The notes under the pieces: generated by a model | Told to the model about the DNA's origin: nothing | Databases searched by the model: none | What the model saw: the letters and a program-made list of their open reading frames with translations, nothing else | Shown: positions 1,633 to 36,155 of the stretch, in pieces | Layout: every line of letters starts with the position of its first letter | How positions within the stretch are numbered: the stretch's first letter is position 1 | From: Candidatus Bathyarchaeia archaeon | GTDB lineage: Archaea > Thermoproteota > CALKCG01 > B24 | Assembly: GCA_038870975.1 (NCBI GenBank) | Contig: JAVZJD010000002.1 | Location: forward strand, 1-64,000 | Length of the DNA stretch: 64,000 nucleotides | Reading direction: 5' to 3' | Made by a program: the position numbers and the translations under genes

Positions 1633-2293
1633 ACAACCCTTCTCAACCCAGCCCTTTTGGCCAGACGCTTTATTACCAGGCGGAAGTACGTGTAGCTGAG
1701 CATCCTGCCCTTATAGTTTTTAGCCAAAGAACACCATAATGGCGCGCTTGGATCATCCATTTTCGGGTGTTCCTCAAGTCAGCCTAATAACGGCTTGTAT
1801 GAAACCACAAACGGAAGGCGCTTAAGCCCTGTTTTGCCGTTAACGGTTATCAAGCAGTATTTGCCTCTAAAATCAACGCTTCCAACATTCATGCTTAGGC
1901 TGTTTTCCGAAGCTTCTTGTCATGTTTAGTCCACCCCCTCCAGTGCTTGTTGCTGTTGACCTCTGCGACAACGCGTTCAATGTCAGCTCGCGTGGCCTCA
2001 CCAATGTTAGAGTCGATCAAGCGTAGAAGCGCTGGAAGGTGGCTTGCAATCTTGCTGACCCTAGCCATGTTTAGGCTTAAAGCATTTAAGTGGTCAAGGA
2101 AGCGCAGGGCTATGCCGCCACCCCTCAACCCTGCAATTAAACGCCTGTACCTTTTCAACCTCCCCTCATAATCGTATATTTCGCTTCTCACCTCACCTAA
2201 AATGGATCTTGGATACTTAAGAGGAAGGGATTCGAACCCTAAATGTAGGCGCCGGGAGTGGGATTTGAACCCACGAGGGCCCGGAGGGCCCAC
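1590..2293 (-). pseudogene. Degraded tyrosine recombinase (SSV-type int(C) fragment)
   Basis: ORF 1895-2293 starts inside the tRNA (GPRGFKSHSRR); downstream frame reads ITVNGKTGLKRLP...LLG*LEEHP...LAKRAGL..VWPYLFRY with in-frame TGA at 1779-1781 and an apparent internal deletion. Confidence 0.8.
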
Positions 2294-2355
2294 AGGCTTT
2301 CATACCCATTTGTGGGACTCCAGGCCTGCGCCTTAGTCCGCTCGGCCATCCCGGC
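2250..2355 (-). tRNA. tRNA-Ser(GGA) with 19-nt intron (2299-2317) at position 37/38
   Basis: Acceptor GCCGGGA/TCCCGGC, anticodon stem CAGGC/GCCTG, long variable arm GGGCCC-TCC-GGGCCC, T arm GTGGG-TTCAAAT-CCCAC, discriminator G; CCA not encoded. Confidence 0.93.
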
Positions 2356-33600: not shown

Positions 33601-34008
33601 CTACTCTTTAAACGCTTCCAGTGTGATGTGTACAACGGTGTCTGGGCTTTTTAAAAGCCGTAGGATTTCCCTAGGTAGGTCTGAGGCTGATGAATCGGCT
33701 TTAACCATGACGGTTCTTGGGCATACGTACTGGCTCTTCCTGAAGACCATAGATTTTACGTCTGTTAGAGTCATTTCTCTAGAGCCGTATCCTCTAACAG
33801 TCCACGTGAACGGTCCAGCTTCGAGCTTTAAGGTTACGACTGTACTTCCGCTTTTTAGAAGCTGTTTGAATTCTGGGCTTAAATCGTAGGCTGCTTTCGA
33901 AGCTGAAACGGCGATTATACAGTCTCCTCTCGGCGTTACATAGGGGTCTCTGGTGATTTCAAAAGTAGTCTTATGTTTAGCTGTTATGTTTGGGTGTCCC
34001 CTAGCCAC
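33601..34008 (-). CDS. DUF371 family protein (start may be ATC 34032)
   Basis: ARGHPNITAKHKTTFEIT, GDCII, VFRKS. Confidence 0.85.
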   Translation of the reverse strand: MARGHPNITAKHKTTFEITRDPYVTPRGDCIIAVSASKAAYDLSPEFKQLLKSGSTVVTLKLEAGPFTWTVRGYGSREMTLTDVKSMVFRKSQYVCPRTVMVKADSSASDLPREILRLLKSPDTVVHITLEAFKE

Positions 34009-34033: not shown

Positions 34034-34758
34034 CTACCACCATCCCCTCCATCCCTTCTTACCCCTTAAAGGTACGAATGCTACACCACCCAAGTGTACT
34101 GTTTCAACAGTTTCATCGCTACGCTTGTACGCTTTAACCAATTCTTGGAATCCACCTGGCGGTCCAATGGGTGCGACTATGAGACCGCCTACTTTAACCT
34201 GTTCGATTAGAGTGTCTGGGATCTCTGGGGCTGCGGCTGTAACGAGGATGCGGTCGTATGGTGCTTTTTCAGGATAGCCTAGAGAGCCGTCTCCATGTAT
34301 GACTGTGACTCTATCTGAGTATCCGCTTTTACGTACGTTTTCCTCAGCCATTCTGTAAAGCTCGAAGATTATTTCAACCGTCCAGACGTGTCCCCACTTC
34401 TCCCTAGGTTCATCAGACGGTGCGACTACTTCAGCTATTGTACAAGCGTGGTATCCTGAGCCGGCTCCAACCTCTAGAACTTTTAAACCCACTTCGAGTT
34501 CAAGCGCTTCATTCATTATACAGACCATGTTTCACCCCTCTAGCCTTCTGGCTAGAAGTGTGGTGCGGATATGGTTTGACCGTAGCCTATCGGTAGTGGT
34601 GTGTCGACGTAGGCGTATGGCTTTAAATATTCCGGTAGAAAGTTCTCCCTTGGGACTCTTCTAAACGCCTCTATGACTTTCTCCGTCTTGAGGATGCCTT
34701 CTCTAACGTAGATGTCTATCAACTTCTCCTTCTCTCTTTTAAAATCCTCAGAGGACAT
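34034..34758 (-). CDS. pcm: Protein-L-isoaspartate O-methyltransferase, split into exons 34758-34560 and 34530-34034 (231 aa when joined)
   Basis: Exon 1 ends [24 protein letters not shown]; exon 2 continues [36 protein letters not shown]. Confidence 0.93.
34531..34559 (-). other. Putative 29-nt bulge-helix-bulge mRNA intron in pcm
   Basis: G-CACC-ACA-CTTCTAGCC-AGAA-GGCTAGAGG-GGTG-AAA-C; cutting after the second nt of each bulge restores frame and motif. Confidence 0.88.
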
Positions 34759-34790: not shown

Positions 34791-36155
34791 TTAAACGTTT
34801 CCCATGCCTAACATCTTGTACTCTTGCACCAGCTTCCTAGCCTTCTCCAGCCACGTTGGGAATTCCTCCGGGTTCTCTGGGAAATTCTGGTAGTGTGTTT
34901 TAACTGTTTTCATGAGTTCAGATGTTTTTCTAAGCCTTATGACGAAGTTGAGCTTTCCTACTGAGCGTAGAAACCTAAGGGCTTTATCTGTGATTGTGAG
35001 TTTAACTTCACCGTATAGGCTGGCTTTTAAAACGTCTTCTTCAGCTATCAGCCTCCGGCTCATACCGTAGTTCAACTCTTCATCCGAAGCATTCTGGAGG
35101 AATACTCTGAAGACGTCTAGAGATGCCTGTTTAGAGCCGTATCCCCTCATGTATGCTACGTTGTAGCTCCAAAGACCCCTGTAGCTTACATCTCCCTTCT
35201 CTAAAGCCTTCGCGGCGGTTTCACCTGCGAGTTTTCCAGCTGTCATAGATGGTCCTATTCCACCTCCGTGGATCGGGTTTACTTGGCAGGCTGCATCACC
35301 TACCACTATTAAGCCGTTTGAAACCATGTTGTCTAGAGGTCTTCTCGTTGGGACGAAGGCTCCTCTTCCGTCTAAAACCTCAGCCTTTTTAAGCCATGGA
35401 AGCTTATCCTCTATGAACCTTGTGAAGTAGCTTTTAATCTCCATTTTGGCTTTTGAAGCTTGAACACCCAGCCCTATGTTGACCTTGTTTAAACCCTTCG
35501 GGAATAGCCAGAAGTATCCCCCTGGAGCGTACTCTTGGCTTAGGTATATGTAGCCGAACGTTCTATCTTCAATTTCGCCTTCTAAGGTTCTAACCTCTCT
35601 GTAGGCTATTTCAAGCTCTTCTCTTTCCACTGTTTTTTCAAAGCCAGGCGTATCTGGGGCTTTACTCCTGAGGACTGCGGATACACCTGAGGCGTCTATG
35701 AAAACCCTCCCCCTTAAAACTCCGCTTGAATTACGGCCTCTGACTTTAACGGCGACTATGTAGTTGTTTTCAACTACAGGTTCTAAAACGGTGGTTCTAT
35801 CCATAAGCTCTACGCCTGCGTTTAAAGCCTCTTTGAGAAGCCTCCCTCCGAATTCGCGTCTATCGACCATGAAGGCTTTAGCCCCTAGACCGTATATTCG
35901 GAATGAGGTTTCAAAGTCTGGTGAAACTACTTTAACGCCTTCAAGCTCCCAGCAGAGTTCGGAGCCTGTGGGGTATTTTAAGCCTATGTTGTCGAAGTGG
36001 TGTTTACCGACTGCGTCTCCACAGGCTTTAAGTCCTACGTTTTCAGATGGCTTAGACTCTAAGAGGCATACTCTTAAGCCTTTCTCAGCGGCTGTCTTTG
36101 CGGCTAGACATCCTCCTGTTCCAGCACCTACGACTACAACATCGTAGAGCTCCAT
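34791..36155 (-). CDS. Geranylgeranyl reductase family flavoprotein
   Basis: [33 protein letters not shown]. Confidence 0.9.

Follow-up and report, generated by a model that had tools for sequence, protein, structure and literature searches.

Archaeal pre-tRNA introns were reportedly described by Marck and Grosjean in 2003, with hBHBh' and relaxed HBh' motifs, and a bulge-helix-bulge (BHB) intron of the cbf5 pre-mRNA is said to go back to the work of Watanabe in 2002 and Yoshinari in 2006. Outside this group, the eukaryotic HAC1 and XBP1 mRNAs are cut at stem-loops by IRE1, with RtcB as the ligase for XBP1 and Trl1 for HAC1, and this splicing is stress-regulated.

The cbf5 pre-mRNA BHB intron is found in Desulfurococcales and Sulfolobales (PMC2738675). 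The HVO_1309 mRNA of Haloferax volcanii has a BHB intron in its 5' UTR (Schwarz et al. 2020, PMC7714728), which is released in circular form and seems to be required for normal expression (PMC7714728). Besides their own 5'-UTR case, Schwarz et al. (2020) found only cbf5 reported (PMC7714728), and a 2023 review still lists only cbf5 and one 5'-UTR case (PMC10485636). The splicing of coding mRNA by the tRNA-splicing enzymes in archaea has been documented for cbf5 alone since 2002.

We analyzed a 29-nt insert in the pcm gene, encoding protein-L-isoaspartate O-methyltransferase (PCMT), in a 64,000-nt stretch of contig JAVZJD010000002.1 from a Candidatus Bathyarchaeia archaeon (the window). An insert with compensating mutations is present at this codon in 37 related genomes and contigs, suggesting that the tRNA-splicing enzymes very probably splice the pcm mRNA.

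The pcm insert resembles the cbf5 intron in being short, ORF-less and located in a coding region, with a BHB or relaxed-BHB motif, in a host with a hetero-oligomeric (alpha-beta)2 endonuclease, and in its probable history as an ancestral intron with precise losses in some lineages. It differs in the host gene and in the lineage, which comprises a Bathyarchaeia-type class and Bathyarchaeia, and its core (helix H, the 3-nt bulges and the inner stem) is canonical in 37/37 copies, with the outer helix alone relaxed. For cbf5, RT-PCR and in vitro cleavage have demonstrated splicing, whereas for pcm we infer it. As in HVO_1309, an mRNA would be the substrate of the splicing endonuclease, but the HVO_1309 intron lies in an untranslated leader and leaves the frame intact, and its euryarchaeal host has an alpha2 enzyme.

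With the pre-tRNA introns the pcm insert shares its geometry (3-nt bulges 4 bp apart, predicted cuts following the second base of each bulge), its size range and presumably also the enzymes that act on it. Unlike pre-tRNA exons, the pcm exons are coding mRNA, without a tRNA body aiding recognition, and one strand of helix H consists of Ala/Pro codons. Like those of HAC1 and XBP1, it would be a small intron of a coding mRNA, spliceosome-independent, removed by an endonuclease and an RNA ligase with a change of frame; here, however, EndA would act on a BHB, in place of IRE1 on stem-loops, and the stress regulation is a feature of HAC1/XBP1.

In the literature readable without subscription, no paper joined pcm or isoaspartate with a BHB or a splicing endonuclease, and none linked Bathyarchaeia with mRNA introns. 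Very probably pcm adds a host gene to a mechanism that, within coding regions, has been published only for cbf5. If true, this second host gene, with its much deeper comparative support (37 co-varying copies in many families), means that EndA-type introns in protein genes are no one-off, and the pcm introns would offer a natural substrate set for the recognition of BHB motifs by EndA outside tRNA.

The split pcm gene

The original prediction described a 29-nt insert with an in-frame TAG and a frame shift inside pcm, and the minus-strand sequence confirms it to the base. The insert divides the gene into two exons, which are located with their neighbors as follows.

34791..36155, minus strand: upstream neighbor, geranylgeranyl-reductase-family flavoprotein (Pfam GGR_cat and FAD_oxidored), ending 33 nt before the pcm start
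34560..34758, minus strand: pcm exon 1, with the ATG at 34758, 66 codons and the first base (C) of a His codon
34531..34559, minus strand: predicted 29-nt BHB intron, made of the last 5' bulge base, a 9-bp stem with an AGAA loop, the 3' strand of helix H and the first two 3' bulge bases
34034..34530, minus strand: pcm exon 2, in which AC finishes the His codon and is followed by 164 codons (Met-Val-Cys...) and the stop
33601..34008, minus strand: downstream neighbor, DUF371 protein (Pfam PF04027, E 1.5e-48)

The minus strand reads ...ATA TCC GCA CCA C/A CTTCTAGCC AGAA GGCTAGAGG GGTG AA/A C ATG GTC, where the slashes mark the insert ends. The upstream ORF (34758-34552, minus strand) encodes 68 aa with the C-terminus ...GQTISAPHF-stop, and the downstream ORF (34528-34034, minus strand) encodes 164 aa with the N-terminus MVCIMNEAL.

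The two exons match consecutive parts of the PCMT profile of Pfam (PF01135), exon 1 at positions 2-60 (E 5e-16) and exon 2 at positions 61-209 of 210 (E 1.6e-42). This near full-length match, together with the SAPHM and the AdoMet-binding LEVGxGSGY motifs in the ORFs, places the gene in the PCMT family. The insert follows the first base of the His codon (phase 1) of the SAPHM motif. The nearest solved structures to the pcm exons are 2yxe, 1jg1 and 4o29. On 2yxe_A exon 1 (aligned to residues 2-64) stops at His64 and exon 2 (65-215) opens at Met65, and the exons are likewise adjacent on 1jg1_A (78/79, with exon 2 aligned to 79-228) and 4o29_A (62/63). Since the exon ends are adjacent on both the Pfam profile and the solved PCMTs, no residue is missing or duplicated and the 29 nt are simply inserted.

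Joining the exons in silico gave GCA CCA CAC ATG GTC (APHMV) and a 231-aa protein, as had been predicted for the excision, and the junction is exact on the Pfam and PDB homologues; the predicted spliced junction of this pcm is GCACCAC-ACATGGTC, and that of other lineages is GCGCCAC-ACATGGT. A PF01135 search of the whole genome detected this gene as the sole true pcm, because the remaining matches are weak, partial and in larger methyltransferases. A second, divergent PCMT paralogue with in-frame stops was detected in a related genome (L043, G008:C9:19250-20100), where a 36-nt spacer lies between copies of a 33-nt direct repeat, an arrangement distinct from a BHB at the pcm site.

The BHB fold of the insert

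The minimum-energy fold of the 66 nt around the insert is a BHB (-24.3 kcal/mol, z = -4.1), and none of 200 shuffles was as stable. It holds two 3-nt bulges on opposite strands with a 4-bp helix between them, and its elements are listed in the order of the mRNA.

34562..34565, minus strand: 5' strand of helix H, CACC (exon bases, Ala/Pro codons), pairing with GGUG at 34533-34536
34559..34561, minus strand: 5' bulge ACA, free in the minimum-energy fold, with the predicted cut at 34560/34559
34537..34558, minus strand: inner helix h' CUUCUAGCC / GGCUAGAGG with the AGAA loop, 9 bp with one G-U
34533..34536, minus strand: 3' strand of helix H, GGUG (intron bases), seen in the fold, the parsed copies and the covariation
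34530..34532, minus strand: 3' bulge AAA, seen in the fold, with the predicted cut at 34531/34530

We take the strand layout, a central helix followed by a bulge, to be that of pre-tRNA introns at position 37/38. The geometry proposed for the insert stood in most parts, since the 4-bp helix, the 3-nt bulges, the 9-bp stem and a further exon-exon pairing ACCAU/AUGGU are all present in the minimum-energy fold, the last as a discontinuous helix; the single closing G:C pair is possible, yet absent from this fold.

The outer helix h consists of that one G:C pair and the discontinuous exon-exon helix, the latter without conservation. The exon-exon helix is mostly set by the Thr-Ile and Met-Val codons, and the third position of the Thr codon, which is free to vary, is unbiased towards pairing (16 C/U vs 20 A/G by hand count in 36 copies). 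The coding constraint also fixes the closing G:C pair, through the Ala and His codons, and three of the four H pairs. Judged from its sequence and fold, the pcm motif is canonical in the core and relaxed outside, in line with reports on cbf5; the relaxation is on the 3'-cut side, because the outer helix is weak there. The (alpha-beta)2 endonucleases have been reported to accept relaxed motifs outside tRNA (PMC2738675, PMC5829648). When 36 copies were folded singly, both bulges were free in 17/36 and helix H formed in 27/36.

BHB patterns are abundant in the genome, with about 39,000 loose and 1,979 stricter matches, and the case for a pcm intron rests for that reason on the junction homology and the cross-genome conservation, not on the motif alone. 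A genome-wide scan for BHB motifs with removal joining two open frames did no better than frame-shifted controls, giving 464 loose and 19 strict cases vs 459-489 and 21-26 in the controls. This criterion is powerless without homology and was dropped. A covariance model of the pcm introns (R1, described below) had the pcm insert as its single match in the whole genome. Separately, we noted a 22-nt BHB at G000:C2:705064-705085 (plus strand; GUGG / AAA / 5-bp stem / CCAC / AUG), the removal of which joins an open frame, and by eye the junction peptide looks like an Lrp/AsnC domain.

Conservation and covariation in relatives

The PCMT profile search detected a split at profile position ~60 in all five other species of the genus, and the split pcm was also found in both species of the sister genus and in families f2 and f3, which belong with the genus to one small class (17 species in the genome collection). 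Family f4 yielded three pcm genes, none of them interrupted. A 401-genome sample of the phylum and a targeted search added the families f11, f15, f19, f23, f33 and f43. The same site and codon phase carries an insert in 37 copies, from nine GTDB families (f1, f2, f3, f11, f15, f19, f23, f33 and f43) and three metagenome contigs, which represent two abundant hot-spring lineages. We extracted and parsed 36 copies by hand, and these are the basis for the lengths, bulges and inner stems given here. The covariance model was built on twelve copies; it recovered all 36 and one more, and had no match in seven intronless loci.

The insert starts after the first base of the His codon in the parsed copies and has lengths of 23, 29, 30, 31, 32, 33 and 34 nt (36 parsed copies), the majority of which shift the frame; the four in-frame introns (30 or 33 nt) have stop codons in 4/4. 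The 5' bulge is ACA, UCU or ACU and the 3' bulge is A-N-A in 36/36 parsed copies, and the inner stem of 3-12 bp abuts the 5' bulge and helix H directly. Seven copies have the UCU or ACU bulge, and in these the canonical cuts alone rebuild CAC (His), while a shift by one base would give Leu or Asn. The intronless relatives have GC(G/A) CC(N) CA(Y) ATG GT at the site, which is the predicted spliced junction.

The original prediction called for a survey of split pcm genes in relatives for covarying BHB stems, and the 37 copies provide it. Helix H is paired at 4/4 positions in 37/37 copies (CGCC/GGCG in 27, CACC/GGUG in 9 and one with a G-U). The exchange of A-U for G-C in the 27 copies is compensatory, and on the exon side it is the synonymous change of GCA to GCG (Ala). 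In the inner helix h' both sides change across the copies in eight of the nine pairs.

Standard pairs fill 97.6% of the structure cells of the 37-sequence alignment vs 74.4% in shuffles, with 0/500 shuffles reaching the observed value, and when the partners were slid by 1-3 columns only 24-45% of the cells paired. Changes on both sides were counted in 126 cells vs 34 in the shuffles (37 sequences), and compensatory changes occur at 9/14 pairs. The 37-sequence alignment was fitted to the model and thus tilts these values towards structure; the ungapped 12-sequence alignment agrees. G-U pairs account for about 19 cells and would turn into mismatches if the opposite strand folded, a modest sign that it is the mRNA strand that folds.

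Among the best 120 database homologues of exon 2, 108 are exon-2-only ORFs of 156-166 aa, mostly starting with MV(S/A/C)IM, and one of the 108 is a cut contig and not a split gene. NCBI MEM2848676.1 (in the cluster of P0001/P0121, to which the window protein itself belongs) is one such record, a 164-aa PCMT of 'Candidatus Bathyarchaeia archaeon' that begins with MVCIMNE. Public annotation systematically records the pcm of this lineage as a truncated, exon-2-only protein, suggesting that gene callers need a BHB-aware step for these lineages.

Alternative explanations for the split gene

Translation of the unspliced mRNA was considered, in which a 68-aa peptide and an exon-2 protein, started at its own ATG through the GGGGUGA segment, would assemble to PCMT. 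Exon 2 does open with ATG, its 164-aa ORF is annotated publicly as a protein, and in the own genus seven bases at the 3' end of the 16S rRNA (...GGAUCACCUCCU) could pair with GGGGUGA at a workable spacing. The ATG, however, is the conserved Met of SAPHM, hence present with or without a translation start, and the segment is locked inside helix H; 27/37 copies have GGCG instead of GGUG, breaking the rRNA pairing. The Shine-Dalgarno likeness noted in the original prediction thus stands as a pairing in this genus and a few others, and is not conserved. The canonical cuts always rebuild His, whereas the unspliced reading loses it in the seven UCU/ACU copies, and two polypeptides would leave a BHB with compensatory changes at variable insert length unexplained. 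We regard such a split enzyme as improbable, in comparison with a spliced mRNA.

A still smaller chance is given to a pseudogene, with the function lost through a small palindromic insertion. The in-frame stop and the frameshift would fit, and the insert is largely a hairpin, like small mobile palindromes. Within the genus, exon 1 has a dN/dS of 0.01-0.10 and exon 2 one of 0.03-0.08, at a synonymous divergence of 0.2-2 (near-saturated), and by these values both pcm exons are under strong purifying selection. A gene broken since before the family split would not show such ratios, which argues that pcm is alive. The insert is also kept at one codon across at least nine families, and the genome has no other pcm.

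Translational recoding, with the 29 nt skipped by ribosomal bypass (T4 gene 60 type) or crossed by a frameshift, seems barely credible. A stop codon and a hairpin come right after the break, in superficial likeness to gene 60, but there are no matching take-off and landing codons (AAC precedes the ATG, while the take-off codon would be CAC here and CCU-C.. in other lineages), and the inserts of 23-34 nt have no common bypass signal; what they conserve is the BHB geometry. An assembly or sequencing artefact has nothing specific in its favor and is next to impossible, with 37 copies from independent assemblies, lineage-specific sequences and the exon-2-only type of ORF dominating the metagenomic homologues of exon 2. 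A group I or group II intron was rejected, the insert having 29 nt vs a catalytic core of hundreds of nucleotides.

Splicing enzymes and predicted tRNA introns of the genome

The genome encodes both a splicing endonuclease and an RtcB ligase. Two endonuclease genes were detected (L044:1459-2019 and L045:1456-2013, both minus strand), each with both EndA Pfam domains (PF01974/PF02778). EndA alpha has the catalytic Tyr/His/Lys, and its best PDB matches are the catalytic subunits of Sulfolobus tokodaii, Aeropyrum pernix and Pyrobaculum aerophilum; EndA beta is without the catalytic His. By its gene content the genome's EndA is of the crenarchaeal two-subunit type, (alpha-beta)2.

RtcB was identified by PF01139 (E 7e-149). 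Its gene (G000:C1:62226-65000, L046/L047) is one frame of 986 aa in which Pfam profile positions 1-50 and 49-426 are matched by two segments ~1.4 kb apart. This pattern resembles an intein, here in the very ligase proposed to act on the pcm exons. A cbf5-like gene (G000:C2:281344-281637, minus strand) has its TruB_N matches in a single frame of 267 aa, unsplit at the matched part, so the genome may lack the classical cbf5 intron.

ARAGORN with intron search predicted introns in 13/44 tRNA genes. The Rfam scan of the window detected one tRNA and nothing else. Rfam and the intron-search ARAGORN both detected a tRNA-Ser(GGA) gene in the window (2248-2355, minus strand, 106-108 nt), which the default ARAGORN missed; its predicted intron is 19 nt long.

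Proposed splicing of pcm and the search for spliced forms

In our proposal the primary transcript of pcm is a pre-mRNA in which a 29-nt BHB intron interrupts the His codon of SAPHM. The intron and the adjoining exon bases would fold into the 4-bp helix, the two 3-nt bulges and a stable inner hairpin; EndA alpha and beta would cut after the second base of each bulge, and RtcB would ligate the exons, with the probable release of a small circular intron. The spliced mRNA would then be translated to the normal 231-aa protein-L-isoaspartate O-methyltransferase. From the sequence comparison we infer the cleavage, the ligation and the translation of the spliced form. That pcm carries a BHB intron removed by EndA and RtcB to give a normal 231-aa PCMT is in our view highly probable, and the central claim of the original prediction, an EndA/RtcB-type intron in pcm, is supported by the shared site and phase, the variable length, the co-varying stems, the selection on both exons and the enzymes encoded.

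A scan of public metagenome contigs for the spliced pcm junction of the own genus and family found none. The junction scan for the two abundant hot-spring lineages matched only two loci (L071 and L072), both intronless genes, which are 64-71% identical to the intron-bearing loci and represent other lineages. No full-length twin of any split pcm form was found in the protein collection. One candidate pair, the 224-aa P0100 and the 161-aa P0072 (100% identical), was rejected, as the P0072 contig is cut inside an intronless gene; the pair is therefore no evidence of splicing or polymorphism.

A more far-reaching proposal has the removal of the pcm intron conditional (for instance on heat, stress or growth state, via EndA/RtcB), an RNA-level switch, and makes the intron one of a large unrecognized spliced set in Bathyarchaeia-type archaea. 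We consider it unlikely. If the removal were conditional, splicing would turn the production of a protein-repair enzyme on or off, and archaea would have their own counterpart of the HAC1/XBP1 system.

Evolutionary history of the pcm intron

A single clade of 38 rows in the PCMT tree (SH-aLRT 90) contains 32/33 of the intron-bearing rows, and nested in it are six intronless rows (family f4, G154, P0100 and L071). The tree was built without the intron copies G098, G196 and G347 and the variant L062, and without the poorly parsed intronless rows G029, G030, G020 and L072. The gain and loss of the intron require at least six changes overall on this tree; counting only well-supported branches, the minimum is two. 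The simplest reading appears to be that the intron was gained early and then lost precisely several times, and this is the pattern described for the cbf5 intron (PMC2738675). By its distribution the pcm intron is old, common to most of the small class and to several families of Bathyarchaeia.

The His codon at the junction is CAC in 36/36 parsed intron copies, and its C can close the 3' bulge; it is CAT in 4/7 intronless relatives (G010, G013, G015 and G154). This contrast is only suggestive, because three of the four CAT relatives belong to one genus. Two hot-spring variants of one 29-nt pcm intron (L061 and L062, 1457-1509 in each) have as their sole difference a reverse-complemented 4-nt loop, AGAC vs GUCU, which fits an inversion of the hairpin tip.
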